Positions 24,701-64,000 of a DNA stretch of 64,000 nt are shown here, one piece after another. Origin of the DNA: Callorhinchus milii (taxonomy: Eukaryota); contig NW_024704742.1 of assembly GCF_018977255.1 (NCBI RefSeq), positions 104,596,001 through 104,660,000 of the forward strand, given 5' to 3'. The notes under the pieces are model-generated. The model saw nothing but the letters and a program-made list of their open reading frames with translations. It was not told where the DNA came from and did not search any database. Numbering within the stretch: the first letter of the stretch is position 1; the number at the start of each line of letters is the position of its first letter. Made by a program: the position numbers and the translations under genes.

Positions 24701-25402
24701 CTATGATTATTAACCACACGTGCCAAAGTCCTAATAAGTAGGGTAGTCCCTGTTTGACGAGCAGCCAAACGCTTGTTCTCAATGGCAGACTATACAAGAC
24801 GGTCAAACTGCAGCCGTACCTCCGCTGCAAACCCCGGAGCTAACGACACAGGCGTCACAGCAAAGCGCGAGGAATCATTATGTTATTAGGGCAGCACTCG
24901 CGCTGCAGCCCCACGTCCCGCGCGTCGTGCGCCGCTGCGCCCAACCCCCGGAGCATCAACATCCTGTGACGCAGCGGAGACAAACCGCTTCACACGCCGG
25001 GGACCCCCTGTCCCAGACACCCACCGCAAGCTGCACCCCCTCCCCCCCACCCCACCCACCCGGGTGACACGCTCCGGGCCCTGTGGGGCACAGCAGCACA
25101 CACCGGGCCTCACGCCGTACCCCGGGTACCCCCCAGAGGGCACGTGCTGCACCCACACCGGGCGTGGTTTGGCCGCGCTGTGCGGGTTGGGGGGGTTTAT
25201 TTATGTTTATTGTATGGTGGGTTTCCTCGGCCCCCTCTCGGGCGGGTGTACTCACGTTGTAGGTGTGCAGACTGGCGCCCACCGCCGTCACCAGGTAGAA
25301 GGTGCGGTGCCGCTGGTGGAAACGGACCGCGTGAGGCACGTGGTTACAGTACAGCGCGAGCGCCCGGTAACCGCTGAACAGTCCACCGCCACCGCGAGGC
25401 AT
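613..25402 (-). CDS. WDR36: WD repeat-containing protein 36 (UTP21 homologue, SSU processome), coding exons 1-15; 3' part outside window
   Basis: 15 hand-spliced GT-AG exons join in frame to 569 aa ([24 protein letters not shown]...[13 protein letters not shown]...GHSAPPTKI...[13 protein letters not shown]...GHQGQINDM), matching recalled vertebrate WDR36. Confidence 0.97.
1732..1897 (-). CDS. WDR36: WDR36 exon 14 (166 nt)
   Basis: [32 protein letters not shown]...LLHRD; taag / gtaaga. Confidence 0.95.
2530..2930 (+). mobile_element. Degenerate CR1 ORF2 fragment
   Basis: gaatactttgcctcagttttcacaaagga and [16 protein letters not shown] motif. Confidence 0.7.
3586..4012 (-). mobile_element. 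L2 3' fragment
   Basis: [25 protein letters not shown]; similar to 26930-27310. Confidence 0.85.
5354..5468 (-). CDS. WDR36: WDR36 exon 13 (115 nt)
   Basis: [38 protein letters not shown]; ttag / gtaagc. Confidence 0.95.
6662..6816 (-). CDS. WDR36: WDR36 exon 12 (155 nt)
   Basis: [31 protein letters not shown]...LHAT; gcag / gtgtgt. Confidence 0.93.
7222..7305 (-). CDS. WDR36: WDR36 exon 11 (84 nt)
   Basis: [27 protein letters not shown]; taag / gtattt. Confidence 0.93.
7895..9415 (+). repeat. Local duplication, copy A (copy B about 35223-36795)
   Basis: Long near-identical stretches including non-SINE sequence; nearly identical spurious ORFs at 7867 and 35227. Confidence 0.92.
9553..9618 (-). 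CDS. WDR36: WDR36 exon 10 (66 nt)
   Basis: [21 protein letters not shown]; gtag / gtaaga. Confidence 0.95.
10472..10592 (-). CDS. WDR36: WDR36 exon 9 (121 nt)
   Basis: [40 protein letters not shown]; acag / gtaaaa. Confidence 0.95.
11822..12545 (-). mobile_element. Old CR1 RT 3' fragment (a similar one at about 46150-46660)
   Basis: Degenerate CR1 C-terminal ORF2 motifs. Confidence 0.6.
12590..12810. mobile_element. Palindromic non-autonomous repeat (shark-type, possibly Penelope-related)
   Basis: About 60-bp inverted arms gcatctatggaaagaggaaagtgagttaa..tttcaggtc and gacctgaaacgttaactcactttcctctctccatagatgc. Confidence 0.7.
13647..13822 (-). CDS. WDR36: WDR36 exon 8 (176 nt)
   Basis: [24 protein letters not shown]...TGADNAIR; taag / gtagga. 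Confidence 0.95.
13990..14122 (-). CDS. WDR36: WDR36 exon 7 (133 nt)
   Basis: [44 protein letters not shown]; atag / gtaatg. Confidence 0.95.
15312..15366 (-). CDS. WDR36: WDR36 exon 6 (55 nt)
   Basis: [18 protein letters not shown]; gtag / gtcagt. Confidence 0.94.
16179..16311 (-). CDS. WDR36: WDR36 exon 5 (133 nt)
   Basis: [43 protein letters not shown]; gcag / gttagt. Confidence 0.95.
17849..17966 (-). CDS. WDR36: WDR36 exon 4 (118 nt)
   Basis: [39 protein letters not shown]; ttag / gtgagt. Confidence 0.95.
18181..18248. repeat. (TG)n microsatellite and poly-G
   Basis: Direct reading. Confidence 0.9.
19704..19804 (-). CDS. WDR36: WDR36 exon 3 (101 nt)
   Basis: [33 protein letters not shown]; ttag / gtgagt. 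Confidence 0.95.
20729..20756 (-). CDS. WDR36: WDR36 exon 2 (28 nt)
   Basis: acag|GTAAAAAAACTTGGAATAGTTGCAGTTA|gtaagt = VKKLGIVAV(S). Confidence 0.92.
21275..22190 (-). mobile_element. Unclassified non-LTR retrotransposon 3' region with CCHC knuckle (second copy 38070-38680)
   Basis: Two diverged copies in the window; [20 protein letters not shown] = C-x2-C-x10-H-x4-C. Confidence 0.6.
22261..24708 (+). mobile_element. Decayed CR1 ORF2 and 3' end in WDR36 intron 1
   Basis: [43 protein letters not shown]; stops, frameshifts and deletions. Confidence 0.92.
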
Positions 25403-25645
25403 CGTCAGCCCAACCCTGACCCACCCTGACCCACCCTGACCCTGACCCTGACCCGGGCGGCGAGGCCAGAGACAGCGCGGGGCTCCGGCGGCTTCTCTCC
25501 CTCTCCCTCTCTCTCTCTCCTCTCTCTCCGCTCGTCTCCCAATCACTGGCTTCGCCGAACGCGCGGTTCGCTTCAACTGTGTCACACTCTAACCTTTCCC
25601 CCTCCGAACAAACACCAGCAGCTCGGTTCCGCTTCTCACTACACC
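24760..25645. promoter_or_regulatory. CpG island spanning WDR36 promoter and exon 1
   Basis: High GC and dense CpG against AT-rich, CpG-poor flanks; includes a (CT)n tract at about 25493-25528. Confidence 0.8.
25256..25402 (-). CDS. WDR36: WDR36 exon 1 (coding part, 147 nt)
   Basis: ATG at 25402; [15 protein letters not shown]...SLHTYN; donor GTGAGT; inside CpG-rich region. Confidence 0.93.
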
Positions 25646-25649
25646 AGGG

Positions 25650-26037
25650 CAAGGGGGAGGGGGGGACTGGGGGCAAAGGGGGGGGGACTGGGGCAAAGGG
25701 GGGGGGACTGAGGGCAAAGGGGGGGGACTGAGGGCAAAGGGGGGGGGACTGGGGCAAAGGGGGGGGACTGAGGGGCAAAGGGGGGGACTGAGGGCAAAGG
25801 GGGGGACTGAGGGCAAAGGGGGGGGACTGAGGGCAAAGGGGGGGGACTGAGGGCAAAGGTGGGGACTGAGGGCAAAGGGGGGACTGAGGGCAAAGGGGGG
25901 GGGACTGAGGGCAAAGGGGGGGGACTGAGGGCAAAGGGGGGACTGGGGACAAAGGGGGGGGGACTGAGGGCAAAGGGTGGGGGGACTGAGGGCAAAGGGG
26001 AGAAAACGGCAAAAGGGGGAAACTGGGGGCAAAGGGA
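25650..26037 (+). repeat. G-rich minisatellite, unit about 20 bp (G6-10 ACTGAGGGCAAA), about 17-18 copies
   Basis: Direct reading; explains the spurious Pro-rich and Gly-rich ORFs. Confidence 0.95.
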
Positions 26038-26193
26038 GTAAATTGTGCCTCGTGTGCAGAAAACGGTCTTGTAGCGCGATTACAGCACTTGCAAGTGAGA
26101 GGATCTGAGTTTGATTGGTGGGCAGGTGAAACGTTAGGCAAGTTTCCTTATTCCACATGCATTTGCCTGGCAGTAAGTGGGAACCTGGATGGT

Positions 26194-26513
26194 ATAATAA
26201 TAATAATAATCCTTGCATTTGATACAGCGCTTTTCACGTCAGGGAGGACGTCCCAAAGCGCTTCACAGAACACACTGTAAAGTGAATTGACTGTATATTT
26301 GTGGGCGAACGCAGCAGCCAATTGCGCACAGCAATGTCCCACAAACAGTCGTAGATTGAAAATGACCAATTTATTATTGTTTTTGGTTTTGGAGGGATTA
26401 TTATTAGATGTGTGCAGTAAGGAAACTTGCCCAAGGTTTCGCCCTCTGCCTGGAATTGAACTCAGGTCTCTCACTTGCAAAGCGAGTGCTCTAACCACTG
26501 AGCTACAGGACTC
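26194..26513 (-). mobile_element. tRNA-derived SINE, same family
   Basis: Near-identical sequence. Other full or partial copies at about 6072-6448, 8917-9138, 9295-9510, 14669-14850, 21088-21260, 29056-29210, 35866-36185, 36587-36810, 37747-38063, 43399-43760, 59806-60110, 62216-62596, 63834-63990. Confidence 0.9.
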
Positions 26514-26904
26514 GATTGATGGATCGCTTTTCCAAGGGTAATAATTTCTTCAAAAGAAAAAATAATAATTTAGTCACTCAATCTACAACTGTTTGTGAGA
26601 CACTGCTGTCCCACAATTGGCTGTTGCATTTCACCTACAAAATATACTGTCAATTCTCTTTAGAGTATATCCTGTGAAGCGCTTTGAGATGTCTCGAAGA
26701 CTTGATAAGACGCTATATCAAATGCAGGGATTATTATTATGTACTGTACAATGAATGGCACAACCAAACAGATTTCAAAACAGAACAGAACTGTTTTAAT
26801 AAAGTATAAACTTAATTTGCAGTTAGTTGGGATATCTACATTATCTGATGCCACAATGACTGGTCAAAACCTCATCTTCCATACTTGCTCACTGTCCTTT
26901 GTCA

Positions 26905-28302
26905 TTGCAGCCGGCAAGTGCGTAGGAAACAAAGCTTTAACCCGCCAAACGGATCCTGGGACCGAGCCAGGGGGAGGGGGAGGAAGGTGACCAAAGGCTC
27001 AGTCAAAAAGAAAGATCTTCAGCAGAGACCTGAAAATGGGAAGGGAGGGAGCGAGACGAAGGGAGTGAGGAAGGCAGTTCCAGAGCCTCGGGGCATAGTG
27101 GCTGAAGACACGGCTGCCGAGGGTGGAGCCAAGGACTCGGGGGACGAGGAGGAGGCCAGATCCGGAGGAACGAAGGCGACGAGTACTGTTTTGAGGAGAG
27201 AGGAGGTCAGAGAGGTAGGGGGCTGCAGAGGAGCGCAGGGACTTGAATACAAGGGTGAGGATCTTGAAATCGATCCTCTCTGGGACAGGCAGCCAGTGCA
27301 GTCTGTCAAGGACTGGGGTGATCGGGGAGCGGAGTTTCTTGCGGGTGAGAATGCGGGCGGCAGAGTTTTGAATGATTTGGAATTTATGGATGGGAGACTG
27401 GCGAGGAGGGCATTAGAGTAGTCCAGCCGAGAGGTGACAAAGGCATGGACCAGGGTTTCAGTGGCTTTTGGGGAGAGGTATTGGCGGAGGTGGGCGATGC
27501 GACGGAGGTGGGAGAAGGCGGTGCTGGTGAGGGACCAGATGTGGGGAAGGAAGTATAATTGGGGTTTGAACCTGATGCCTAGGTTGCGTACGGGTTCGGA
27601 GAGTTTTACGGGGAGGTCGGGTAGGTGAAGTAGGTGAGAGCCGTGAGATTTTAGACGTTGACAGGAGCCAAATAGCATGGCTTCCATCTTGTCAACATTC
27701 AGCTGAAGGAAGTTTGTGCTCATCCAGCCCCTGAGATCTGACAGGCAGGCTGACAGAACATCAGGGGACTGGGGGTCGCAAAGAGAGGTGGAAAAATAGA
27801 GTTGGGTGTCATCTGCATACATGTAGAAATGTACCCCATGTCTGCGGATGACATCCCGAAGAGGGAGCACGTACATCAGAAAGAGGAGGGGACCAAGGAT
27901 GGATCCTTGGGGTACCCCGCAGGTGACCGGGTGAGAGCGGGAGGAGAAGCCGTTTGTGCAGATGTACTGCTGGCGGTTTGTGAGGTAAGACTCGAACCAG
28001 GCGAGTGCGGTCCCACTGAGGTGGATGACGGAGGAAAGGTGGTGGAGGAGGATGGCGTGATCGACTGTCGAATGCGGCGGAGAGGTTCAGGAGGACAAGT
28101 AGGCAGAGGGAGTCCTGATCACAGATAGAGAGGATGTCGTTTGTGACTTTCACAAGAGCAGTCTCTGTACTGTGGGCAGGGCGGAAACCGGACTGGAGGG
28201 GTTCGAAGCGGGAGTGGGAGGAGAGGTGTGCACGAAGTTGGTTGGCAACGACGCGTTCCAGAACTTTTGAGAGGAAGAGCAGATTAGAAATAAGGCGGTA
28301 GT
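26905..28302 (-). mobile_element. L2 RT 3' fragment
   Basis: [25 protein letters not shown]. Confidence 0.9.
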
Positions 28303-29957
28303 GGATGGGTTTTACGACTCATGCATATACAGTTAAGTGGATTTAATAGGAAATTGAACAGAACTCGGGCAAATGTACAACTTTGGCATTTATACAGATA
28401 AGACTTAAGCGAGTTTTACTATATTATGATTATATGCTAAAAGGATTTTACTGAAAACAACAAAACAAAATGATATTTGTATAGCGCCTTTCACGTCGGG
28501 AGGACAACTATATAACAGATGTGGTTAATTCGATTTTTAAACATCAGTTAAGACTGAAAAATGACACCGTGCATGAACTATTTGTCTGATAAATTAGACA
28601 ATAAGTAGAGGCCAGAAGCTGTCTACTTATCACACAAGATAGATAAACCATAACCAATTAACTTGGAATGCAGAATGTGAGAAGTTTACAGGCAGTACAG
28701 TACTTGGCTACTGTTTTGGTAAATTTAGGCTTTTCCTAAACTTTGGGTCCACACTAAGAATTGTTTAGGAACCTTATCCTCTTCAGGTGAGAGTGGAATT
28801 TAACATGAAGGTCATTGGTAAAGTGGTATATAAGATTTCCGTTCAGTTTCAATTTCTGGGTGTTTGAACACATGTCATGTGAAACTCTCACTAAGTTTCA
28901 CCTGGTTCAGGTTCAACTCTGAGTCAAGGCTATGCAAACAAATAACAGGATTGAGGGATCAATGTGTGTGTGAAATTTTTATTATTTTATTATTTATTTT
29001 TATTAGTTTCACAGTGTGTGAAGTTTTTATTAATTTTTAACTGAGAAGTTTACTATTAATAATCCTTGCATTTGATATAGCGCTTTTCACGTCGGGAGGA
29101 CGTCCCAAAGCGCTTCACAGAACACACTGTAAAGTGAATTGACTGTATATTTGTGGGTGAACGCGGCAGCCAATTGCGCACAGCAATGTCCCACAAACAG
29201 TTGTAGATTTGTATTGACTGTGGAGAGCCCAGAAGCGCTCCAGGAAGCTATATAAATGCAAGTTGTTGTTGTATTTACTAGCAGAGAGTCCGATTCAGTG
29301 TTCTTGTAGAAAAACTAATAGTGTTTTTCAAGATTTCAACCCAGAAGCTTCTCTTCTTCTCTTGGCTTGCAGCAAAGCACGACCTTTGTTGCTTCTGTTC
29401 CAAATTCTGTGTGCTTTCTGGAGAGGTTCTCTATTAACCCTCGATACTTTTCAAGTTCAAACACTTTTCAGTTTCAACTCAGCCGCATGATAACACCATC
29501 TAAGCCTCAAACTATTACTGCTAACAGGATTCCATAATCAGGTACCAGTTAACAAGATTGACAAACTTCAAGTCACAGAGTGCACGTAACAATCGCATAC
29601 ACTAAAGCTTCCTAGTATTCCAGGTTTTAAAAAAATATTTTCAGCATGTATCTGTAATTTCTACTCCTTGTTCTTGTCAAAAGATTCAGGCTTCATTTCG
29701 CTCATTGTATCTATCTTGACAAGCATAAAGTACAGCTAATGGTTTGACTCCAAGATATTGGAGCATATTTTAAAAGAGACAAACTGCTTTCTCCAATGGC
29801 TAGGCAAATTTAGTTGCTGAACTGCACAGACTGCAAAATGTTCCAGTTATGATCCTCAGTCTGCAGTGCTGCCTGATTTCAACCACTTGGCAGGAGATGG
29901 ACTACAAGTGGTTAAGGAGAAGAAAATCAGAGATTCCTCATCTAAATCCTCATCTCC

Positions 29958-32900
29958 TGGAGGAGAGTCGGGGAGCGGCGGCAGCACAGCGCTGGGAGGA
30001 GCCTGAGCCTACTGACCCAGGTACTTAAACTCGACGCCGGAGCGAGATCAGCTCGGGGGGGGGGGGGGGGGGAGGTGTGGGGCGGAGCGGGGGAACTGCT
30101 GACCTCATAGATTAGTTTTCAGGTGCGTGCGCGCGCAACAAAAAAAAAACCCTCTGCGCCCCCCCCCCCCAACCCCCCAGGGCTCACATCAGAGCCCACT
30201 ATGGTCCTGTTGGGTTCGCTGCCCCAATCTACGGGATAATGCCATCCACCTGACCGCTCGCTCCCGGTCCCCGCGTGCGCACTATGGCTGCCGCTTTGAC
30301 CCGAGCCCCCTCACCCCCTCCCTCCCGCCCCCCTCCTCTCTCCCCCCAAACCCTCCCCCCTCTGCATCTCTCCCGCTCTCTCCTCCTCTCTCTCCGTCCC
30401 TCTCGTCTTCTATCCCCACTTGACCCTCCCACAACCTCCCTCTGCTCCAGCCTGGGAATCCTCCGCCGGGCTCACCGCGGCACTCGGCGTTGGCTGTCCA
30501 GCAGCAGCCACACCGACTGCCCCATTCCCCACCACACTCGCCAGCCACCCCGGACACAGACCCGGGGAGTCAACCTCTCCTCCCTCATCCCCATTCCCCC
30601 CACCCCTGCCTCACAACCTGGACCCCCTCCCCTCCCACACACCCTTCTGTCAACCGCTCCCTCCACATCGGACTGCAAAATGTCCGCTCCCTCTGCAACA
30701 AGGCCCTGGTCATCAACGATCTCATCCTTGATGAGAACGTTGATATCATGGCCTTAACAGAAACCTGGCTCACCCCAGGCGACACCTTCCCCCTCACGGA
30801 GGCCACGCCACCCGGCTACACCTCCCACCACATCCCCCGCCCCAACCGCCGTGGCGGTGGTGTTGCCCTTATCTCAAGGACACCACTTGCCCTATCCCCT
30901 ACTCCACTGGCTCTTTCCCCTCCTTTGAGCACCTCACCCTCTCCCACCCCTCATTCCTCTCCCTTAAAATCCTCCTCCTCTACCGGCCCCCTAAAACCTC
31001 TCCCACCTTCATCTCTGACATTTCAACACTCCTCACATCTCTTTGCCTCTGCTCTGATCGCCTCATCATCCTGGGCGACTTTAACCTACACTTCACCCCC
31101 TCCTGCTCCATCTCCACAGACTTCTCTTCCCTGCTCTCCTCACTCAACCTCTCCTTACACATAAACTCCCCCACTCACAGTCACGGCCACCCACTCGATT
31201 TGGTGATCACCCGGGGCCTCAGTGTCTCGGATGTCACTATTACCGACAAGGCCATCTCTGACCACTACTTCATCTCCTTCACCACCTCCACCCCCCTCCC
31301 CACCTCCACCAGACCCACCACCATCTTCTACCGCCCTTGGAAGAAGTTACCCCCACAATCCCTAACCGATGCCTTGGAGTCCTCTGAACTCCTCTCCCTC
31401 TGGCCTTCAACCCTCACCGACCCCTCTTCTCCTCTCTCCCTCCTCCACAATACCCTCTCCTCCACACTCGATACTCTTGCCCCCATCACTTCCCGCACTG
31501 TCTCCTACTCCCGCTCCTCCCCCTGGTACACCACCCACCTCCGCTCACTGAAAAGCCAGGTGCGGGCTGCTGAACGCACCTGTGTCAAATCTGGCCTAAC
31601 GGTCCACCGACAAATCTGGCTGGACCTCCTCAAAATTTACCGCTCCACTCTAGCCTCGGCCAAGTCGTCCTTCTACTCCAGGATAATCCTGGAGGCGAAG
31701 AACAACCCCAGGCTACTGTTTTCCACCACAACCCGACTCCTCCGTCCCCCCCGCCACCCCGCGCAGGTCATCTCCTCCAACCTTCACTGCGAGGAGATGC
31801 TGGATTTCCTTGAATCCAAGATCAAGGGAATCCGCTCCGCGGTCACTTCCCCTCCAACTTCCACCAACCCCCCACCCTTCCCTCCCACACTCCGACTCCT
31901 ACCCATCCTCCCCTACACACCTTCGTACCCGTTTCCCCACCCTCTGTCACTGAACTCATCCTATCCCTAAAACCAACCACCTGCTCCCTTGACCCCATCC
32001 CCACTCCACTCCTTATCTCCCAGCTCCACTTTCTTGCCCCACATATCACTGACATCATCAACCTGTCCCTCTCCTCTGGCTCTGTCCCCATTCCATTAAA
32101 AACTGCCATCATCACGCCCACCCTGAAAAAACCCTCCCTTGATGCGTCGCAGCTATCAAGCTACCGGCCCATCTCCAACCTCCCCTTTCTCTCCAAGGTC
32201 TTGGAAAGAGTTGTCGCCTCCCAACTGCGCTCTTTCCTTTCCACCCATTCTCTTTTTGAACCCCTTCAGTCAGGTTTCCGTGCTGCCCATAGCACAGAAA
32301 CTGCCCTGGTCAAGGTCACCAATGATATCCTGACCATCTGTGACCAGGGCTCCCTCTGTCTCCTCGTCCTCCTCGACCTATCGGCAGCATTCGATACGGT
32401 CGACCACGCTATCCTACTCCACCGCTTGTCCTCCCACCTCAACCTTCAAGGCACTGTCCTTGAATGGTTTAGGTCGTACCTTTCTCACCGTCTTCACTTT
32501 GTCTCGACGAATGGCTTCTCCTCCACCCCCCGTACTGTCTCATGTGGTGTCCCTCAGGGCTCTGTCCTCGGTCCCCTCCTCTTCACCCTCTATATGCTCC
32601 CCCTTGGTGACATCATCCGCAGACATGGAGTTAACTTCCACATGTATGCGGATGACACCCAACTCTACCTTTCCTCCTCTACTCTCAACTCCACGACCAC
32701 CGATGTCCTGACAGCTGCCTGTCCGACATCGAGTCCTGGACGAGAGACAACTTTCTTCAGCTCAACGTGCGAAAAACCGAGGCCCTCCTGATTGGCTCAC
32801 GTCAGCGCCTCCGCACCTCAGGCGCTGACACCATCAGCATCCAAGGCTGCACTCTCCACCTCTCAAAGCCAGTCAGGAACCTCGGCGTTTTGTTCGACCC

Positions 32901-33683
32901 TGAGCTGTCCTTTCTCCCTCACATCCGCACCACAACTGGCACCGCCTTCCATCACCTCCGGAACATCGCCAGACTACGGCATTACCTCACCCCTCACGCT
33001 GCTGAAACCCTGGTTCACGCCTTTGTCACCTCAAGGCTGGACTATGGGAACTCTCTCCTCGCCGGCCTTCCCGCCACCTCCCTCCACAAGCTGCAGGTCA
33101 TTCAGAACTCTGCAGCTCGTGTACTGTCCCGCACCAGGCTTCGGGACCACATCACTCCCACCCTCGCTCGCCTCCACTGGCTCCCCATCCCCCAGAGGAT
33201 TGATTTCAAGATCCTCATCCTCACCTACAAGGCCATTCACGGCCTTGCTCCCTCCTACCTCTCCAACCTACTATCCCCCTACCTACCTGCCCGTACCCTC
33301 CGTTCCTCTGGCTCCGGTCTGCTCCACGTCCCCCGCCCCAACCGCCCTACCATCGGTGGTCGGGCCTTCAGCCTCTCAGCCCCAGGCTCTGGAACTCCAT
33401 CCCCCAGTGCCTTCGCCGCTTCCTCCCTCTCCTCCTTCAAGGCCGGTCTCAAAACCTTTCTCTTTGACCGAGCCTTCAGCTCCCCTCTCGACTCTCTTCC
33501 CCTCCTCGCTCCCTCCCTTCCCTCCCCTCACCCTGACCATTTCCCCACTCCTCGCTCACTCCCTCCCTCCCCTCACCCTGACCATTTCCCCCCTGCTCGG
33601 GTCATGACCCAACTGTGCAGCGCCTTGGGACGTCCTCCTGACGTGAAAGGCGCTTTATAAATGGAATCTTGTTGTTGTTGTTG
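29958..33683 (+). mobile_element. Near full-length L2-clade LINE (APE endonuclease and RT, frameshifted)
   Basis: LQNVRSL..ALTETWL..GGGVAL (EN), [43 protein letters not shown] (RT), LHWLP C-terminus, (TTG)n tail; 5' boundary approximate. Confidence 0.92.
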
Positions 33684-33896
33684 AGAGCATATATCTGTAC
33701 TGGCCAACATTTTTTCTGGTCAACAAAATAATCATAGAAATAACAAAGTAGCACAGATCTATGCCATAAATCAGGAGCCAACCAAAGAGGTTGACCACCA
33801 TCACTGGCATATATGGACATTGAGTGAAGACTTAATCAAGCTTGGCTGTAATGAACTCAATGAGAGAAATACCTGCCAACACACATGAAAAATATT

Positions 33897-34456
33897 TACA
33901 ACAACAACAACAAGATTCCATTTATAGAGCGCCTTTCATGTGGGGAGGACGTCCCAAGGCGCTGGACAGTTGGGTCAGGACCCGAGCAGGGGGGAAAAGG
34001 TCAGGGTGAGGGGAGGGAAAGGAGGGGGCGAGGAGGGGGTAGAGAGTTGAGAGGGGAGCTGAAGGCACGGTCAAAGAGAAAGGTCTTGAGACCGACCTTG
34101 AAGGAGGAAAGGGAGGAGGCGGCGAAGGCACTGGGGGATAGAGTTCCAGAGCCTGGGGGCTGAGAGGCTGAAGGCCCGGCCACCGATGGTAGGGCGGTTG
34201 GGGCGGGGGATGTGGAGCAGACCGGAGCCAGAGGAACGGAGGGTACGGGCAGGTAAGTAGGGGATAGTAGGTCGTAGAGGTAGGAGGGAGCAAGGCCGTG
34301 AATGGCCTTGTAGGTGAGGATGAGGATCTTGAAATCGATCCTCTGGGGGATGGGGAGCCAGTGGAGGCGAGCGAGGGTGGGAGTGATGTGGTCCCGAAGC
34401 CTGGTGCGGGACGTACATGAGCTGCAGAGTTGTGAATGACCTGCAGCTTGTGGAGG
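33897..34456 (-). mobile_element. 5'-truncated L2 copy, same family, tail-to-tail with the previous element
   Basis: Reverse complement of about 33085-33683, (AAC)n tail. Confidence 0.9.
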
Positions 34457-46663: not shown

Positions 46664-49600
46664 ATTCATAGATTCATAGATTCATAGAATGTTACGGCAC
46701 AGAAGGAGGCCATTTGGCCCATTGAGTCTGTGCCAGCTCTTTGACAGAGCAAGTCACTTTCACTAACCCCAATCACCAGCTTTCTCCCCATAACCCTGCA
46801 AACCCGTCTTCCCCAGTTACCTTTCCAGTTCTCTCTTAAAAGCTGTTATCAAATTGCACTTCACTGCCCTTTCAGGCAGATCATTCCAAATTCAAACAAC
46901 TCGCTGAGTGAAAAAATTTCTTCTAACCTCCCCTCTGCTTCTTAGATATCTTAAGACTGTGACCACGGGTCACAGACACACCTACCAGCGGAAACAGCTT
47001 TTCCTTATCTCACCTGTCGAAACCTTTCATGATCTTAAAGACCTCTATCAGGTCCCCGCGTAACTTTCTCTGCTCTAATGGGAAATGTCCTAACTTCTCC
47101 AGCCTGTCCTCATAGCTAAGGTTCCCCATTCCTGGTATCATTCTCGTGAATCTCCTCTGCACTCTTTCCAGTGCCTTAATGTCTTTCCGGAAGTAAGGTG
47201 CCCAGAACTGGACGCAGTACTCCAGCTGAGGCCTAACCAGTGTTTTGTATAGATTAACCATAACCTCCCTACTCTTATACTCTATGCCCCTACTAATAAA
47301 GCTCAGTACACCAAATGCCTTTTTTACTGCCTTATCTACCTGCCCCGCTACCTTTAATGATTCGCTTACTTGAACACCCAGATCTCTCTGTACGTTCACC
47401 CCCTTAAGATTGAGCTACCAAGTCTATATTGCCTCCTATCATTTTTCCTACCTAAGTGTATCACCTCACACTTATCCACATTGAAATCCATCTGCCACAT
47501 GTCAGCCCATTCCACCATTCTGTGTATGTCTGCTTGCAGTTGGTTACAGTCCTCCTCACTATTTACTACCCTACCTAACTTTGTATCATCTGCAAACTTG
47601 GAAATAGTGCTCTCTATGCCCAAGTCCAGATCATTAATATATATTAGAAAGAGCAGTGGTCCCAATACCGATCCCTGGGGGACACCGCTGCACACCTCCT
47701 TTCATTTTGAGAAACACCCATTAACCACCACCCTCTGCTTTCTGTCACTCAGCCAGTTCTTAATCCAAACTGCCACTGTCCCCTCTAATTTTTGTTTAAT
47801 CTCTTATGCGGTACTGCGTCAAAAGCCTTTTTGAAATCCATGTAAATAACGTCCACCGCATTTCCCTCATCAACCCTCGCAGTCACCTCTTCAAAAAATT
47901 CTATTAGATTTGTTAGGCAAGATTTGCCTTTAACAAATCCATGTTGGCTGTCTCTAATTACCTCATGTTCCTCTAAGTAGAGATTTATTCTGTCCCGGAT
48001 TATGGTCTCCAGTAGTTTTCCTATTACCGAAGTTAGGCTGACTGGCCTGTAATTTCCGGGTTTGTCTTTCTGCCCCTTTTTGTAGAGGGGGTAACATTAG
48101 CCACTCTCCAGTCTCTTGGCACCACTCCTGTGTCCAATGAAGATTGAAATATAATGGCCAAAGCCTCCGCTATTTGAACCCGTATCTCCCACAGCAACCT
48201 TGGGTGAAACCCATCTGGTCCTGGTGACTTATCAATTTTGAGCCCAGTCAATCTTTTCAGAACTTCCTCTCTGTCTATAGTAATCTGATCTATTTCCTCT
48301 ACCCTCTCATCCAATACTGCGGCATTTGGGGCATCCATTTCCGTTGTGAAGACAGATGCAAAGTACTCGTTCAGTACATCAGCCATGCCCTCTGCCTCCA
48401 CAACAAGATTGCCGTCATTGTCTTTGATTGGCCCCACCCTACCTTTAACTAACCTTTTTTCCTTTATGTGCTTGTAAAATATTTTAGGACTCCCCTTTAT
48501 GTTACCCGCTAATCTCTTCTCATGCGATCTTTTAGCCTGTCTTATCACTCTTTTAAGATCACTCCTGCATTCTCTATAATGCGCTTTGCTATCCTCAGTA
48601 TCTTGCGTCTTCCAATTGTCGTACGCCGTCTTCTTCTTTTTCATCCTAGACAGAATATCCCTGGTCATCCAGGCTGGCTTGGTTGTCGCACATTTCCCTT
48701 TTGTGGGAATATATCTATTTAGACCTTGAGCTATTATATCTTTGAAGATCTCCCATTGCTCATGAGTCGTTTTACCTGCTAGTCTTACTTGCCAGTCCAC
48801 CAACTCTAGGTCCCTTTTTAGCCCATCAAAATTAGCCCTTTTCCAGTCAAGCATTTTCACCCTTGACTGTACTTTGTCCCTGTTCATGAGTAATCTAAAT
48901 CTAATAATATTATGGTCACTGTTACCTAGATGCTCCCCTACCGAAACCTGTTCAACCTGACCTATTTCATTCCCCAGGACTAGATCCAGCAATGCTTCCT
49001 TCCTCGTAGGACTGGAGACATACTGCTCAAGAAAATTTTCCTGTACACAGTCTATGAATCTTTCTCCTGCCTTGCCCTTAGCGCTGCTATTTTGCCAGTC
49101 TATATTGGGATAATTGAAATCCCCCATTATCACAACTCTGTTCGCCTTACATCTATCCGCGATCTGGTTGCAGATCTGCTCCTCTATCTCCTTCCCGCTG
49201 TCTGGTGGTCTATAGTAAACCCCTATCAGTGTAACCACTCCTTTCTTATTTCTTATCTCTAACCAGATGGATTCTGTTGTCGGGCCCTCCAGAGCCTCGT
49301 TCCTTTCTACAGCTATAATTGTATCCTTAACTAATATTGCCACCCCTCCTCCTTTTCTTCCTTCTCTATCCTTCCTGAACACATTATATCCTGGAATATT
49401 TAACTCCCATTCCTGTCCTGGCTTGAGCCATGTCTCGGTTACTGCCACCAGATCGTATCCCCCTACGGCCAGTTGAACCTGCAGCTCGTCAACCTTATTC
49501 CCTAAGCTACGTACATTTAGGTACATGCATTTGAGGAAATTGTCCGCTTGTACCTGCTCTACACTTCCCACTTGTCTTTTTCCTCTAATCTCTAATCCAT

Positions 49601-50311
49601 TGTTTATCCTTGGATACCCATTCCCCCTTGACACTGGTTTAAATCTGCCCCTACAGAATTTGATAATCTCTTGGCAAGAAAGCTCACCCCTGCCTTGCTT
49701 AAGTGCCGCCCATCCTCAACGTAAAGATCCCACCTCTCCCAGTAGTGGTCCCAATTGTCCAGAAAACGGAAACCTTCTTTTCTGGACCATTTCTCCAGCC
49801 AATCGTTCATGTGCCTGATCCCTTCATAATGGTGCCTTGTTGCCCGAGGTACCGGGAGTAACCCAGAGATCACCATCTTGGATGTTCTGAACTTGAGTTT
49901 GCTCCCCAGCTTTTGATACTCGCCCTCGAGCATCTCAGCCCACTTCTTACCAATATCGTGGGACCCCACATGGACCACGACTTCTGGACATTCTCCTTTC
50001 CCCCAAAGAATCTTGTCCATGCGCTCTGTGAAGTCCACTACCCTTGCACCACGAAGGCAGCAAACCATCCTAGCCTCACGATTCTGATTACAGAAGATCC
50101 TGTCAGTGCCTCTTACTGTTGAATCCCCTATCACAACTGTATTGCCCTTGTGAACCATGCCCTTGTCCTGTTGGACAGAATGTCCACCGCTGTCCTCACG
50201 AGAGGCTTCCACGCTCTCGATAGCTAATGTTGAGTACTGATTAGAGACTGGTACTGTGTTGGGGGTGCTCTGCCTTGAACAACTCCTGTTCTTGCCCCGT
50301 CGCACTCTCAC
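46664..50311 (-). mobile_element. Near full-length CR1 LINE with SGNH-esterase ORF1 and disrupted EN/RT ORF2
   Basis: ORF1 VVIGDSTVRG..VHVGSHDI..DGRHLS; ORF2 [54 protein letters not shown]; (TCTATGAA)n tail. Confidence 0.93.
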
Positions 50312-55499: not shown

Positions 55500-56808
55500 A
55501 CTAAATCCAATGTTCTTTAATAATAAATACACATTTGAATGTATGAAGATTTCATAAATAATTAAATATGTTTCTTGTATTACAAATGGATTTACAGTTA
55601 GTATAGAAAATATTGAAACAAACATAATGCAAATTGTTTCTTATTATCAAAATTGAATATATTAAAGAGAGATGTAAATCAATATAGAAATTAAAAGAAA
55701 AACATGCATATGCATTAATAGTAAATATTTATTGTACTGCTGGAGCTGCATGAACAAAATATTCCAGTATATATTGGTCAATATTTCTAATTGTATCACA
55801 TTGTATAAGTGTATATCAAATACAGTTTATCAATAGACAATAATTTTTAAATAGCAAGTATATATATATATTATATATACCTGTATATATACTATATATA
55901 TTTAACGTGGATGTTTTTGTCAAAAAAGGCTGAAAATGATGCACAGTGCATACACGGTTTTCGCACAACCTATTACACTGCATGGTATTTCAGGGTCAAC
56001 AGGTTTTCTCAGCCTGAGAATTGTGTGTCATTTTTATGCCATTAACTTTGTGTTTCAGAACTCTGAATTATCAAACAAAAATAAAAAACTAGATTTGATT
56101 TCCCATAAAAATGACATTGCTAACTCTGAAATGTGAATCAAAGGCTCATCAAAAAAATCAGTGCAGTCTAATTCCTCAATTAAACAATTACAAGGTGTAA
56201 TTGAACCAATGATTAGAATTAATCAAAAAGGTTTTAATTCTGTAACTATAATCTGATTTATGGAAATGTTCATAATGAATTTCGTACAATACTATTAATC
56301 TAGAAACAGATTATTTGTAAAGACAGGACAATTCAATTTTTTTAAAATGTCACTGGCTTTTTGGAATTAAGATCTAACCCCAATTCAATTTTCGTAGAAA
56401 ACAATCTTTCATTCTTATACTTTTTTTAAAAAATTGTATTTTTGTATTTTTATATATTTTTATATTTTGAAGATGGTTACAGTTTCAACAAAGTTGAAGT
56501 TTTAAATGTTTGTTCTGATTTGTTTCCCAAGAAACATAGTTACAATAATTACATTGTGTAGAATAACAATGTTGTTGCTGTTTCTCTCTTAAATACAGTA
56601 TATGTTCAATCGATATGAATACAGAAATGTTACCCTTTCCTCAAATACTACAAATAAACCTGGCTTGTAAATATCAAATCCCTGCATCATCAATTAATCG
56701 TGTAAACTCGTAATGAAAAGTGAATCTGTTAAATATTAATATATCATTAAATCATTAAAGTTAGTTGAGTGCAAATTCACAGCATTTTGTTTTGTCAGAA
56801 TCAAACCC
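55500..56808 (-). other. Putative AU-rich 3' UTR of the TSLP-like gene
   Basis: Very AT-rich unique sequence after the stop, several ATTTA on minus strand, ATTAAA at about 56235 and AATAAA at 55728-55733; true 3' end unknown. Confidence 0.5.
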
Positions 56809-56907
56809 TCAATCCTCCAGCTCCTTCAGATCCAGTAACTGACTGTAGAGCTGCCACTGTAAATCCACATAATTTTTTCTTCTCATGGTATTGCCACAGG
56901 TAAATTC
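56809..56907 (-). CDS. TSLP: TSLP-like exon 5 (helix D and stop)
   Basis: ttttttcttttgaag|GAATTTACCTGT...GAT TGA; EFTCGNTMRRKNYVDLQWQLYSQLLDLKELED*; followed by AT-rich sequence. Confidence 0.8.
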   Translation of the reverse strand, partial: EFTCGNTMRRKNYVDLQWQLYSQLLDLKELED

Positions 56908-59900
56908 CTTCAAAAGAAAAAATGCATACATGGGTGATCAGCTAATGTGTTCCTAAATAACAACAACAAAATTACATTTGTATTGTGCCTTTCACATCTG
57001 AAGGATGTTCCAAGGCGCTGGACAGAGTTTAGGACCCGAGCTGGGGCTTGGGATTGGGGAGGGTGAAGGACCAGGATCTTGAACTGTACCCTCTGAATGA
57101 TGGCAAGCCAGTGGAATCTGGCAAAGATGGGGGTGATAGGGTCACGGAGCCTGGTGCGGGAGAGGACATGGGCTGCAGAGTTCTGGATGATCTGCAGAGA
57201 GAGGAGTTGGGGAGACCGACAAGCAAGGAGTTTGCACAGTCAAGCCTTGATGTTATGAATGCGTGTATGAGGGTTTTGGCGAGCTTCAGTGTGATAAAGT
57301 GGTGGAGCTGGGCAATGTTCCGGAGATGGGGGAAGACAGAGCGGGTCAATGTATGGATGGGGTAAAAGGATAGTTGAGGGTCAAAGAAGATGCCAAGGTT
57401 CCGAACTGGCTTAGTAAGGTGGAGTGTGCATCCACTCAGCGCCTGAAGTGTGGAGGCGCTGACGGGAGCCAATCAGGAGAGTCTTGATCTTGTTGACGTT
57501 CAACTGAAGAAAGTTAGTTCTCATCCAGGATTTGATGTCTGACAGACATTCTGTCAGGACAGCAGTGGTCCTGGAGTCAAGGGTAGAGGCAGAGAGACAG
57601 AGTTGGGTGTCATCTGCGTACATGTGGAAGTTGACCCCATGTCTGCTGATGATGTCACCAAGAGGGAGCATATAGATATTAAAGAGGAAGGGACCAAGGA
57701 CAGAGCCCTGAGGAACACCGCACAAGATGGTGTGTGGGCTAGAGAAGAAGCTATTTGTGGAGATGAAGTGGAGGCGATGTGAAAGGTACGATCTGAACCA
57801 TTCAAGGACAGAACTGTGAAGGTTGAGATGAGAGGAGAGTCGTGGATGAGGATAGAATGGTCAACGGTATTGATGGCAGCAGAGAGGTTAAGGAGGATAA
57901 GGAGGCATAGGGAGCCCTGGTCGCAGATGGACAGAATGTCATTTGTCACTTTGACCAGGGCTGTGGGCAGCACGGAAACCCGATTGTAGGGGTTCGAGAA
58001 CGGAGTGACGGGAGAGGAAGGAGCCAAGCTGGGTGGCAATGACTTGTTCCAGGACCTTGGATCTTAAGAACAAGTTGTTAGTTTTAAAGTCAAAGTGATA
58101 CCATAACGTTTAACTGAACTGATCTATTTCTAATAACATTAGAAATCATTTTAAGTGTCCTCAACATATTTGTATGAAAGCAGAGAGGAACCGTGGACTG
58201 TGATGCAGAGCACCAGAAGTGTGGCATGTTTGCAATCAATTCTACAAAGAATCGAAAACTGAAAAGAAATTCTGATGCCAAATACTTACTGAGCACAAAG
58301 TTTTATTGTTGCATGCATTCTCGATTGACTCTTTTACGTTTCTGTAAAACGTTTTTTTTTTGCCTTTAAAGCAGGCCATCTTGCAGTAAGTGTTCACGAT
58401 ACCACGCACTGTGCCAAATAAAGGATCCTAAAATTAAAAAAAAGAATTAGTGTTGTGTAAGTATTCTTTCATTTATTGTAACCATGTTAATAAAAAATAT
58501 TTATGATGTTATTTCTTGAATTGAATTTAGATTGATATAGTCTACAATGAATGCAAAATTAATTAGAACAAATTTGATATAATTTGACTACTACAGACCA
58601 TAAGTTAGAACTTGAAAAACAGTTGGCATTTATTAGGACACAGTCACAACGTTATACCAAAATCTGCATAGATTTAACAATGATATATAATCATTCAAAA
58701 TTTGGTTACTATCCTCCTTGATGGGGTGTCCTTGGAGCTAAACTGGTTCCAAGATGACATGTTTGCCAATGGAATTGCGAAATCGATCCAGCCCTCTGTG
58801 GCAGTCTCAGTCATCTGGTTCCTGAGCTAGGCGGGTCTGCAGTATTCAGGCCATTGCTGATGACAGCACAGCAGTAGGACGTAGAAGGGAAGAATCAATC
58901 TCTGGGAACAGGGAGTCATCCCACTCAACTCTTATTAACCCTGCAAGCCAAAGCCTAATGGGTAGTGTTGACCTAGCTGGACAAGGCAGCAGGAAAGCTT
59001 ATCAGACAGTGATATTAATAGCAGGCTATGCAGTTTTAGCTGGTTAGACTCCAGCAGTGCTGAAACTCACACTCTGGAATCCCAAGTCTTGGCTCTTGTC
59101 AACCTTCCCTAATATTTTCCAGAATTAGGTAAGCAGGATGCAACCCTCCAGGGAGAGGGGGCATTCCATTCCAACAATCTATTTGGGATTTCCATAGAAT
59201 TTTCAGTTTGGTTTGAATATTTTTAAGCATGTTGATGGGTTTCCATATGTGTCAGACATCCGGCTAACTAAAAATAAAAGTTATTTCAAATTGTTGCCAA
59301 CTAACTGCTGTGGGAAAAAATGTATCTTGCTCAATAATGCAAATCAAGCAGAGTCTATTCTATTGAAACATACCAAATTTACTCCATACTGCTGAGGCAT
59401 CTCACCCTAGAATAGAGAGAAAGAACAGGTTAATCAACCTATAGCACGTTACATATAACTCAGAAATGTTTGGGTCTACAATCAACTTCCTTTGTTCTCA
59501 GCTACACCAGAAATAAATCATTTAGGAGACTCTCAAATTGACTCATTGAGGATTATCTGTTGTTCACATTGATTCAGTTGTGGTATTTTTACCTCTGGAG
59601 CAATATTTTGTGGACTAAAAGGTTTAGACTTTTGGCAATAATGGCTGACACTTCATCTCAGTGCTGGGGGAGCAATGCATTATTGGAGGTGCCATCATTT
59701 AGATGAGACCTTAAATGAGGTCTTGCCTATATGTTCAGGTGGATATTAAAGATCTCATAAGTAAAAGAGAAGGAAGTTTTCTTTTTTCCCCGTGACCTGG
59801 TGAACAATAATAATAATAATAATCCTTGCATTTGATATAGTGCCTTATCACATCTTCTAGACGTCTCAAAGTGCTTCACAGAATATACTGTAAAGTGAAT

Positions 59901-61561
59901 TGACTATATTTGTGGCAGCCAATTGCGCACAACAGTGTCCCACAAACAGTTGTGGATTAAGAAAACATTGTCATTGCTTTTTTTTCCGTGAGGGATTATT
60001 ATTAGGCGTTTGGAGTAAGGAAACTTGCCCAAGGTATCCCCCTGCCGGGAATCAAACCCAGGTCTCTCGCTTGCAAGGCGAGTGCTCTAACCACTGAGCT
60101 ACAGGACTCCGCAATCATCCAAATAAATTTATAATTGTATCAGATTGTCTCAGTTTTAGTACTCTTGGTTCTGAGTCAGAAGGCTGTGGGTTCAAGATCC
60201 ACTTTGGAATTTGAACTCATATGGTCTAAACTGATATACCAATTCAGTCCGAGCTTCCGATTGGACACTTTAAACCGAGGTCCAGCCTGCCTGATCAGGT
60301 GGACGTTAAAGAACCCATGGTACTATTCAAAAAGAGAAGGGAGTTTCTTCCAGTATCCTGGCCAACAATTCCCCCAAATCAAAAAAAGTTAAAACTTGGT
60401 CATTCATTTCATGGCTAACTGTGGGACATTGCTGTGTGCGATTGGGCTTCTGCATTCACCTACAAACACATAATAATAATAATAATCCTTGCATTTGATA
60501 TAGCGCTTTTCACGTCGGGAGGACGTCCCAAAGCGCTTCACAGAACATACTGTAAAGTGAATTGACTGTATATTTGTGGGCGAACGCGGCAGCCAATTGT
60601 GCACAGCAATGTCCCACAAACAGTCGTAGATTGAAAATGACCAATTTAATTATTGTTTTTGGTTTTTTGGAGGGATTATTATTAGGCTCTGTGTGGAGTA
60701 AGGAAACTTGCCCAAGGTTTCGCCCTCTGCCTGGAATTGAACTCAGGTCTCTCGCTTGCAAAGCGAGTGCTCTAACCACTGAGCTACAGGACTCCATAGT
60801 CATTCCATTTCACGGTAAATCATGTTAATTGCTTTGAGACGTTGTTCCGACATGATAAGCCACTATACCGAACACAAGGATTATTATTACCATTTAGCTT
60901 CATAATTGTCTGTGTGGCATTTCTTTGTACGAACTGGCTGCTGATTTTGCCTTCAAGACACAGTCACTACACTTTGACAGCAATTTCCTATTTAGCCCTT
61001 TGAGGCGTTTGGCTCTATCAAGGGCTAAACAAAAAGCAAGGATTATAACAACTAATGAATGAATAATTCATTATAATATGAATAGCTATATATATATATG
61101 GATATAATTCATCTGTCTCAACAATAATTGCTAGAATGGGGTTGATATTATTGTGTGCCCCAGTTTACAGAAATCATATATACTGAGTGCTTATCACATA
61201 CAACTTTACAGCAGAAATATATTTCAGATTTAGATGTCTTACAGGTAGTGATGGTTTAATGATGCCGATCAGTGCTTTCAGTTGGCTCCTGTTACAATTC
61301 TTGTATGGCGAGGAATCGTCCTTCTTGCGGGTCCTGTTGGGCATCATCTGCACGACCACAAGTACCAGCTGGAAAATGATGAGAACCCTAAGAGAGACTG
61401 TCAAATACAAGAGAGAAGAACATTGATGTGATGGTGTGAAAATGTCCCACTGACAGTTGTTGAATAGTTTATGGTAACATCGTTTCGCCCCGAATCCCAC
61501 CGAGTGCTCCTCCTCTCCCATTGCACTGGTCCTGCTATCCCGGGATAGACAACTCACCCAT
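56809..61561 (-). CDS. TSLP: Candidate thymic stromal lymphopoietin (IL-7-family short-chain cytokine), 5 coding exons, 142 aa
   Basis: join(61558-61561, 61243-61397, 59374-59406, 58290-58427, 56809-56907) = MVSLRVLIIFQLVLVVVQMMPNRTRKKDDSSPYKNCNRSQLKALIGIIKPSLP/GEMPQQYGVNL/DPLFGTVRGIVNTYCKMACFKGKKKTFYRNVKESIENACNNKTLCS/EFTCGNTMRRKNYVDLQWQLYSQLLDLKELED*. Intron phases 1,0,0,0; hydrophobic leader; C-x19-C in exon 4; upstream of WDR36 on the same strand as in mammals. Confidence 0.85.
56957..58062 (-). mobile_element. L2 fragment in the last intron of the TSLP-like gene
   Basis: [20 protein letters not shown]; internal deletion; (AAC)n tail. Confidence 0.9.
58290..58427 (-). CDS. TSLP: TSLP-like exon 4 (helices B and C, 138 nt)
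   Basis: ttttttttaattttag|GATCCT...TGCTCA|gtaagt; open, phase 0-0; ACFKGKKKTFYRNVKESIENAC. Confidence 0.87.
59374..59406 (-). CDS. TSLP: TSLP-like exon 3 (33 nt, A-B loop)
   Basis: gttctttctctctattctag|GGTGAG...AATTTG|gtatgt; GEMPQQYGVNL; phase 0-0. Confidence 0.75.
60140..60468 (+). mobile_element. Old Deu-domain-like SINE (SacSINE1/AmnSINE1-type); related fragments at 59646-59805, 35035-35320, 7896-7995, 10720-11160, 41020-41155
   Basis: tctgagtcagaaggctgtgggttcaag head; ttaaaccgaggtcc..tcaggtggacgttaaagaacccatgg core resembles the recalled Deu domain. Confidence 0.65.
60470..60796 (-). mobile_element. tRNA-derived SINE, nearly identical to 42616-42941 (TSLP-like intron 2)
   Basis: Near-identical sequence. 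Confidence 0.9.
61243..61397 (-). CDS. TSLP: TSLP-like exon 2 (signal peptide and helix A, 155 nt)
   Basis: ttcttctctcttgtatttgacag|TC TCT CTT AGG...CTA CCT|gtaaga; VSLRVLIIFQLVLVVV...YKNCNRSQLKALI. Confidence 0.88.
61558..61561 (-). CDS. TSLP: TSLP-like exon 1 coding part (ATG G)
   Basis: ccacaATGG|gtgagt: strong Kozak context plus consensus donor, 57 nt downstream of TATATAA. Confidence 0.85.
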
Positions 61562-61618
61562 TGTGGAGTCGGCACTGAGTGAGCTGCTGCTGATGGTATT
61601 AACTGGAGAGGCAGTGGG

Positions 61619-61877
61619 TTATATAGTATGTTGATGGACGCCCCCTCGAAACAAAGCAAATACCTAAACTTTGTCAATGTATCCCAATCGGAGTGATATT
61701 CACATTCACAGCTACCAATTGGCTTTTTAAAATAACTATTAAAATGATGCATCGCTGACGTGGAACTTTCCAATTATTATTCATAATTGAAGAGGTGTTT
61801 ATTTGATTAAATCATCCAAACTTAAACATCACTACATTGCCCATTCCAAGTGAAAGCGTCAGTTTAGTCATGCAAAT
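61619..61877 (-). promoter_or_regulatory. Putative TSLP-like promoter
   Basis: TATATAA (61619-61625, minus), CCAAT motifs (about 61684 and 61715), TGACGT CRE-like (61756-61761) abutting GGAACTTTCC kappaB-like (61762-61771), AAGTGAAAG IRF-like (about 61848), ATGCAAAT octamer (61870-61877). Confidence 0.65.
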
Positions 61878-63550: not shown

Positions 63551-64000
63551 TTACGATAAGAATTTGCCATAATTACTCGACAGTCAATGTTTTAGTCATT
63601 AGAGATTCTCATGACTCATTTATGACAGATCTACCATTTGCAGAATATTTATTTTGATGCGTGATCCTACCATCCGCTGTCCTCATCATCCATTCTATAT
63701 TTCCTTGAATTGATCAACTTTATTTCATTGTAAGATTCAGATGACTTATGCCTTGAAGTCCTTTTAGTGACTGGTCAGACGCCAAGCAGCAGAGAGGGGG
63801 AGAGGAAAGAGAGCACGAGGTAGCTGAAAGCTTGTGGAGTCCTGTGGTCCAGTGGCTAACACACTTTCCTCACAGTGTAGTGGTTAGTGTTAGCTCTCCT
63901 TGGTTCAATTCCCAGATGGGCAGTTTAAACAAACGCAATCCTTTTGTAAATAGAAACCGGATTTTTAGTCGACTGGCAGATTGCTTTACGACCAAAATTT

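Follow-up and report, generated by a model that had tools for sequence, protein, structure and literature searches.

TSLP is a short-chain cytokine that forms an up-up-down-down four-helix bundle with six cysteines in disulfide pairs. It has a conserved tryptophan in helix D (human Trp148, part of a buried-water triad) and a basic stretch before that helix, and its receptor complexes are represented by PDB 5J11 and a mouse complex (structural passages of PMC7396566). Interleukin-7 (IL-7) belongs to the same cytokine subgroup and shares the up-up-down-down four-helix fold, the six cysteines, a single buried tryptophan in helix D and the use of IL-7R-alpha (same passages of PMC7396566). TSLP is stated not to be found in fish in the relevant passages of three papers (PMC4690019, 2015; PMC6936713, 2019; PMC7658486, 2020), and a passage of a fourth has it appear first in monotremes (PMC8226699, 2021). 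Fishes have crlf2, and zebrafish genetics from the Boehm laboratory predict a still unidentified il7r/crlf2 ligand, a TSLP equivalent that contributes strongly to T-cell development and was not found in genomic or cDNA collections (sections of PMC6936713 on this ligand). Here we describe a candidate gene in 64,000 nucleotides of the elephant shark (Callorhinchus milii) genome (assembly GCF_018977255.1, contig NW_024704742.1, positions 104,596,001 to 104,660,000), referred to below as the window. It is probably a genuine gene, apparently unannotated so far, that encodes a short-chain cytokine and corresponds by position to mammalian TSLP as its orthologue; the evidence is circumstantial.

The candidate was read on the minus strand, and all coordinates below are window positions. 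Five exons joined into a stop-free frame of 142 codons with GT/AG borders, and the coding parts were as follows.

61561-61558, minus strand: coding part of exon 1, ATGG, donor gtgagt, phase 1.
61397-61243, minus strand: exon 2, 155 nt, donor gtaaga.
59406-59374, minus strand: exon 3, 33 nt, 11 residues (loop), donor gtatgt.
58427-58290, minus strand: exon 4, 138 nt, 46 residues, donor gtaagt.
56907-56809, minus strand: coding part of exon 5, 99 nt including the TGA stop codon.

The intron phases were 1,0,0,0, and each of the four acceptors consisted of a pyrimidine tract and AG. Splice sites were scored with approximate vertebrate consensus matrices, and the scores are rough. On this scale, the acceptors ranked in the top 0.4-3.6% of AG sites in the window and the exon 1 donor (5.2 bits) in the top 1% of GT sites. 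Exon 3 had an acceptor of 7.9 bits and a donor of 1.3 bits, and the frame was preserved if this exon was skipped. Exon 2 encodes a hydrophobic leader, a linker of basic and acidic residues, the first cysteine within an N-C-N-x-S motif and an amphipathic segment that is the candidate for helix A. Four cysteines and the pattern C-x7-F-x11-C are encoded by exon 4. In exon 5, a cysteine is followed by an RRK basic patch and then by a long predicted helix, the candidate helix D, which carries the only tryptophan of the mature protein (Trp128). In the product as a whole, an arginine precedes a 12-residue hydrophobic stretch at residues 6-17, after which comes the charged linker; the six cysteines are residues 36, 79, 83, 103, 109, and 114, basic runs occupy residues 25-27, 87-89, and 119-121, and there are three N-x-S/T sequons. 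A preliminary description, drawn up from the letters of the window, had proposed this five-exon model, and each of its checkable details (exon sizes, borders, phases, 142 residues, leader, six cysteines, and TATA box) was confirmed in the sequence.

The position of the candidate was compared with that of mammalian TSLP. WDR36/Utp21 propeller profiles matched 10 of the 123 minus-strand frames in positions 1-22000 in colinear order, with PF25171 covering the first propeller (profile positions 19-262) and PF25168 the second (16-247), at E values from 6e-6 to 8.5e-20. These matches define the following feature.

19832-610, minus strand: 5' half of WDR36, ten colinear exon matches.

WDR36 begins about 37 kb downstream of the candidate stop codon, on the same strand. 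The candidate had been described as lying upstream of WDR36; it is indeed upstream and on the same strand, and the two genes, some 37 kb apart, do not immediately adjoin. On the other, upstream side, 15 kb separate the candidate's TATA box from the last exon of SLC25A46, which is also on the minus strand. Its frame matches Mito_carr and is 100% identical to the NCBI Callorhinchus milii SLC25A46 protein, which bears out the cartilaginous-fish origin that had been proposed. The next matches, among those listed, were shark, ray, bird, reptile, fish, and mammal proteins at 73-88% identity (311 of 777 candidates had E values up to 1e-5, and the best 120 of the 311 were considered). SLC25A46, the candidate and WDR36 therefore follow one another in this order, and all three are encoded on the minus strand. 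With SLC25A46 upstream in the same orientation, the candidate occupies the entire slot between the two neighbours, and the synteny is stronger than the preliminary description knew. Human TSLP lies in the same order and orientation, SLC25A46-TSLP-WDR36, at 5q22.1. The slot and the single strand, computed here for the shark side, are a likeness to mammalian TSLP. IL-7 sits at a different locus in mammals. Between SLC25A46 and WDR36, only retroelement domains were found among 139 window frames of at least 80 aa and 143 frames of at least 75 aa from the nearest 50 kb upstream (of 273 such frames in the 100 kb upstream).

A TATA box and several motif matches were found ahead of the start codon, and a probable 3' untranslated region (UTR) follows the stop codon. 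Expected numbers were computed from window-wide frequencies and refer to 300 bp, both strands; all entries upstream of the TATA box are motif matches only.

61870-61877, minus strand: octamer ATTTGCAT, 0.01 expected.
61864-61870, minus strand: AP-1-like TGACTAA, 0.23 expected.
61762-61771, minus strand: kappaB-like decamer GGAAAGTTCC, 0.09 expected.
61756-61761, minus strand: half-site ACGTCA of a cAMP response element (CRE), 0.12 expected.
61718-61722, minus strand: CCAAT, motif match.
61625-61619, minus strand: TATA box TATATAA, 64 nt before the ATG.
56808-56233, minus strand: probable 3' UTR, ending at the first ATTAAA (56238-56233).

The octamer, kappaB-like, CRE half-site, and AP-1-like motifs cluster within 260 nt upstream of the TATA box. 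The window contains 27 copies of TATATAA, both strands counted (0.21 per kb per strand). The start codon is flanked by A at -3 and G at +4, with no further ATG between it and the TATA box. Downstream, the first ATTAAA is 570 nt past the stop codon and the next signal, AATAAA, is at 55733. The first 600 nt past the stop codon contain five ATTTA motifs, compared with 1.5 expected from the window-wide rate.

Several observations weigh against a working gene at this locus. The donors of exons 2-4 are mediocre (top 7-8% of GT sites), and the exon 5 acceptor is the weakest site of the model (3.47 bits). Alternative last exons with equal or stronger acceptors exist within a fragment of a long interspersed nuclear element (LINE) in intron 4, for example 57191-56910. 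By sequence inspection, the end of the leader has no small residues at -3/-1, so that signal-peptidase cleavage is uncertain. The candidate helix A is short, about 13 residues, and is followed by two prolines. Comparable models also arose in null sequence. When the window and the adjacent 100 kb were reversed and chains were required to reach at least the lowest scores of the candidate itself, an ATG-to-stop exon chain began at 13-35 ATGs per 64-100 kb, and two chain starts in 328 kb were also leader-like. In 6 Mb of order-4 Markov sequence, with chains of 120-220 codons and at least three introns, 5512 ATGs started a chain (48 per 52 kb strand). Of these chains, 180 had a leader-like N-terminus (1.56 per 52 kb), and 140 of the leader chains also had an even number of cysteines, four or more (1.2 per 52 kb). 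A stop-free spliced frame with a leader and cysteines alone proves nothing. Since a leader-bearing spliceable frame is expected by chance, the rarity of the candidate rests on its promoter and start context and on motif patterns chosen post hoc.

These results bear on the explanation that the model is not a working protein-coding gene, in which case it would be a chance frame of AT-rich intergenic DNA or a decayed, silent remnant, and the TATA box and motifs would be coincidental. Leader-like frames that can be spliced are what such an explanation expects, and the three weak donors, the weak last acceptor and the existence of several alternative models agree with it. Against it, the combination of a leader chain with a TATA box, start context, and no upstream ATG was found once in the 6 Mb null. 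When TATAWAW at -40 to -95, a purine at -3, G at +4, and no intervening ATG were required in the Markov sequence, 157 ATGs gave 10 chains and one leader-bearing chain, or 0.0087 per 52 kb strand. On the minus strand of the window, ATG 61561 alone passed among the three ATGs with a TATA box and start context. Four more such ATGs, located on the plus strand of the window or in the next 100 kb (either strand), yielded no chain. The full package of chain, leader, TATA box, and start context is roughly a 1-10% chance event; this range is not an exact P value, because the criteria were chosen after the candidate had been seen and the splice matrices are approximations.

The cysteine patterns stressed in the preliminary description were also counted in null proteins. 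C-x7-F-x11-C occurred in 193 of 5079 starts and in 2 of the 149 leader-bearing ones, while N-C soon after the leader occurred in 424 of 5079 and 9 of 149, respectively. N-C-[ND]-x-[ST] was found in 6 of 5079 starts, and none of the 149 leader-bearing starts combined C-x7-F-x11-C with N-C. These patterns are uncommon in chance frames, and six cysteines, a lone tryptophan in the last helix, and C-x7-F-x11-C are rare together in null proteins. A chance or remnant frame would also have to account for the octamer, kappaB-like site, and CRE half-site clustered just upstream, for the location of every exon in an island of unique sequence between repeats, and for a place and strand that are exactly those of mammalian TSLP. 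Taken with the evidence in its favour, we regard this explanation as unlikely.

The candidate appears to be absent from existing annotation. Protein searches covered a collection of 5.8 billion clusters (word-sharing search) and 1.84 billion representatives (HMMER). No protein of 109-349 aa matched exon 2 (six word-sharing candidates, none at E up to 10), and no protein of 82-2000 aa matched exon 4 (five word-sharing candidates, none at E up to 1). Three phmmer matches of exon 4 at E up to 0.001 among the 1.84 billion representatives were rejected as composition matches, the proteins being repetitive, of 844-1768 aa, and matched in multiple stretches. Because exons 2 and 4 are absent from the protein collections, the gene and any close relative seem to be missing from public gene models, in line with the remark of the preliminary description that divergent cytokines of this kind often escape annotation. 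The same absence can be read in favour of a chance or remnant frame: the collections hold the NCBI proteins of this species without these exons, which means that no such model came from a pipeline that draws on transcript evidence. TSLP transcripts easily escape detection, since in a marsupial study the TSLP gene was found by hidden Markov model (HMM) and its transcript was not (the part of PMC3173455 on this gene). A fish TSLP was reported in none of the papers listed by searches of the open literature. One text supplement of the elephant shark genome paper contained no mention of TSLP, CRLF2, IL7R, or their spelled-out names.

Homology searches and structure prediction were carried out with single exon-encoded pieces of 32-51 residues. 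The Pfam TSLP and IL7 profiles gave no match on any of three exon pieces at E up to 10. In a six-frame search of the whole genome, PF15216 (TSLP) gave no match at the locus; its three matches were weak and lay on other contigs (E 0.2-6.4). Searches of PDB sequences with phmmer returned no match for any of four exon pieces, and a search of the ESM Atlas for look-alikes of exon 4 gave no usable match. The TSLP sequence homology claimed in the preliminary description was therefore unsupported, the Pfam TSLP profile being silent both on the pieces and at the locus and PDB giving no match for the four pieces. The direct tests are negative and of low power, because only exon pieces were used. The IL7 profile (PF01415) matched neither the exon pieces nor any part of the genome in the exon-wise search, in a species said to have key elements of an IL-7-dependent CD8 T-cell lineage (the immune-gene passages of PMC3964593). 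Because this profile is silent in such a genome, the exon-wise test is blunt, and the comparison with the IL-7 profile is uninformative rather than negative. Likewise, the FN3_7 profile of IL-7R-alpha had no match in the exon-wise search of the genome, which is too insensitive to be informative.

When the exon 4 piece was folded alone with AlphaFold2, two helices (H2-19 and H29-41) joined by a nine-residue lysine-rich loop were predicted at a mean predicted local distance difference test score (pLDDT) of 65.1; these are the candidate helices B and C. The exon 5 piece alone gave one 28-residue helix (H4-31 of 32) at a mean pLDDT of 85.7. With the amphipathic stretch of exon 2, these predicted helices could supply the four that a short-chain cytokine needs. 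This is weak evidence because single peptides were folded without an alignment, and it does little against a chance or remnant frame, given that AlphaFold readily draws helices for short amphipathic peptides. That no family profile or solved structure matched any exon piece also agrees with such a frame.

Compared with mammalian TSLP, the candidate product is in the same size class (142 residues, against about 140-160 for TSLP) and resembles it in having a hydrophobic leader, six cysteines, N-glycosylation sequons, and predicted helices. The only tryptophan of its mature part, residue 128, lies in the predicted exon 5 helix; this likeness is weak because 39 of the 149 leader-bearing null starts share a lone tryptophan within the last 25 residues. 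The RRK patch just before the last helix recalls the basic stretch of TSLP, from which it differs in being much shorter. Other differences are the lack of a detectable profile or pairwise match for the exon pieces, a cysteine spacing that can be superposed on the TSLP spacing only in part, and a charged insert after the leader. The second and fifth cysteines are off register with the mammalian pair near helix B, and the helix C threonine of the buried-water triad is not kept. The likeness to human and mouse TSLP strings that had been put forward is tentative.

These differences would be accounted for if the gene encoded a real secreted, cysteine-containing helical protein not descended from TSLP, whether a factor specific to this lineage or some other cytokine of the IL-2/IL-7 group. 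All homology tests run came out negative, as this explanation predicts, and relative to TSLP the product has a 15-residue charged insert between the leader and the first cysteine and two extra, close-set cysteines after helix C instead of a pair near helix B. It also has no threonine at the helix C position of the buried-water triad (structural passages of PMC7396566). However, the negative searches lose force where cytokine sequences are known to diverge beyond profile detection (passages of PMC6936713 and PMC13337447). The scanned frames between SLC25A46 and WDR36 hold no other gene, and it would be a remarkable accident for a small four-intron gene encoding a secreted helical protein with six cysteines to lie exactly where TSLP does and to point the same way. 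A protein unrelated to TSLP by descent is, in our judgement, quite improbable.

If the candidate is the orthologue of TSLP, its expression and function might be pictured as follows. A TATA-type promoter with the octamer, kappaB-like, CRE-like, and AP-1-like motifs, all present in the sequence, would drive a short mRNA. Four introns would be removed at the sites given above; three of them are swollen by short interspersed nuclear element (SINE), LINE, and other repeat DNA, and without these insertions the gene would span roughly 2 kb. The 142-residue precursor would enter the secretory pathway through its hydrophobic leader, and the mature part of about 115-120 residues may form a four-helix bundle, with helix A from exon 2, helices B and C from exon 4, and helix D from exon 5. 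Three disulfides among the six cysteines could tie this bundle. TSLP itself engages CRLF2 (TSLPR) first and IL-7R-alpha next, activates STAT5, and is an inducible product that is typical of barrier epithelia and stroma. By analogy with TSLP, and purely on the strength of the orthology, the product would signal through a receptor pair of the IL-7R-alpha/CRLF2 type to JAK/STAT5. The ATTTA-rich 3' flank would fit a short-lived, inducible message.

Two described cases in fishes bear on this proposal. The zebrafish il7r/crlf2 ligand is predicted from genetics in a lineage different from that of the chimaera, and the gene described here may be a candidate for such a ligand in a fish whose genome evolves more slowly. 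For the elephant shark, the genome paper made the case that the set of helper cytokines is reduced (the corresponding passages of PMC3964593). Cytokines once reported missing from this species and later found were, like the candidate, small, fast-evolving, multi-exon helical genes missed by annotation and similarity searches; unlike it, they belonged to families already known in fishes, which TSLP does not according to the literature searched. If real, the candidate would join the cytokines wrongly thought absent from the elephant shark, and would be a TSLP-type cytokine in a lineage, and at a depth, where the searched literature says there is none.

We lean towards the view that TSLP is not a mammalian invention, that the last common ancestor of cartilaginous and bony vertebrates already carried it in the SLC25A46-WDR36 interval, and that the slowly evolving elephant shark has kept it. 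The type-2 alarmin TSLP would then have originated several hundred million years earlier, in the first jawed vertebrates, and the IL-7/TSLP pair with its two receptor complexes would date to the origin of jawed-vertebrate adaptive immunity. The placement of the IL-7/TSLP split at the base of jawed vertebrates, which the preliminary description had drawn from the candidate, would stand or fall with the orthology. For comparative immunology, a real gene would make it testable what binds fish crlf2 and il7r. A chimaera TSLP would supply both a sequence and a genomic address for profiles with which to find the fish ligand, and the SLC25A46-WDR36 interval would be the place to seek the teleost il7r/crlf2 ligand.

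Other starts and frames were noted around exon 2. An ATG with a usable donor lies 2 kb upstream, at 63671-63689 on the minus strand. Splicing from this donor to exon 2 would keep the phase and add six residues to the leader; it may be an alternative first exon or a chance occurrence. Leader-bearing models starting at 63689 and 63686 were rejected as separate genes, as they borrow exon 2 of the candidate. Exon 2 also sits in a 199-codon stop-free frame (61177-61773, minus strand) that runs through intron 1, exon 1, and the promoter. This frame was dropped as evidence because 0.19 such frames per window are expected by chance in null sequence. Intron 1 also contains an in-frame ATG, at 61521, which on retention of the intron would lengthen the N-terminus by 41 residues.

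Repeats occupy much of the introns. Exons 2, 4, and 5 each matched only themselves in the 991.5 Mb genome, and every coding exon lies in a single-copy island, with a summed contig depth of about 7-20 compared with 1e4 to 4e6 in the repeats of introns 2-4. The repeats identified were as follows.

56982-58060, minus strand: LINE fragment with reverse-transcriptase frames in intron 4, about 1.1 kb of the 1382-nt intron.
59796-60118 and 60470-60803, minus strand: two tRNA-Ala-derived SINE copies in intron 2, in the orientation of the gene.

The LINE fragment has an RVT_1 match at 57414-57860 on the minus strand (E 1.4e-16) and a depth of 3e4-3e5, against about 10 in the exons, and contigs break at 56981/56982. 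The two SINE copies are direct repeats, 82-89% identical, with tRNA-Ala(tgc)-like heads found by ARAGORN at 60037-60108 and 60722-60792. Their summed contig depth reached 1e6-4e6 in each of four DNA runs, which makes this SINE one of the most abundant repeats of the genome.

Polymorphism was assessed from these four genomic DNA runs (X1-X4) of one study, at a depth of about 7-20. Nine single-base differences were listed over 5.55 kb, of which one was coding: 59382 C>T in contigs of X1 and X4, which changes Val62 in exon 3 conservatively to Ile. No frameshift or stop was found in the exons in the contigs of the four runs, and the numbers are too small to show constraint. The contigs cross the exon-intron borders and are colinear with the introns, as is genomic DNA, and so say nothing on splicing. 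More than 3000 contig joints were recorded, and all 15 listed fall in repeats. Exon 5 and its 3' flank were carried by 4 of 12 listed runs (share 1.00), none of them recorded as RNA, and eight presumed-RNA runs contained almost no words of this stretch.

Pfam matches were obtained for 15 of the 139 window frames of at least 80 aa. Thirteen of the 15 were LINE reverse-transcriptase or endonuclease frames (22-34, 38-39, 47-52, and 57.4-57.9 kb), one was a WDR36 propeller piece, and one was a GDSL/OSK-like frame near a LINE endonuclease. The last of these belongs to the region 48036-50311 on the minus strand, where a frame with weak GDSL-lipase/OSK-like matches (E 2.6e-6 and 4.2e-4) comes before a LINE that has an endonuclease frame of 560 codons; the GDSL-lipase/OSK-like frame looks like an esterase-type first open reading frame (ORF1) of the LINE. 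In the 100 kb upstream of the window (104660001-104760000), which contain 27 N, three further reverse-transcriptase frames were found in the 50 kb scanned. Within the window, positions 24000-34000 form a GC-rich block (0.49-0.60, against about 0.36-0.40 around it), and near 30 kb the GC skew changes sign, from +0.27 to -0.48. In this region, reverse-transcriptase frames occur on both strands (23274-23954, plus; 27022-28318, minus; 30424-33657, plus), a layout suggestive of LINE insertions that are nested or arranged head to head.

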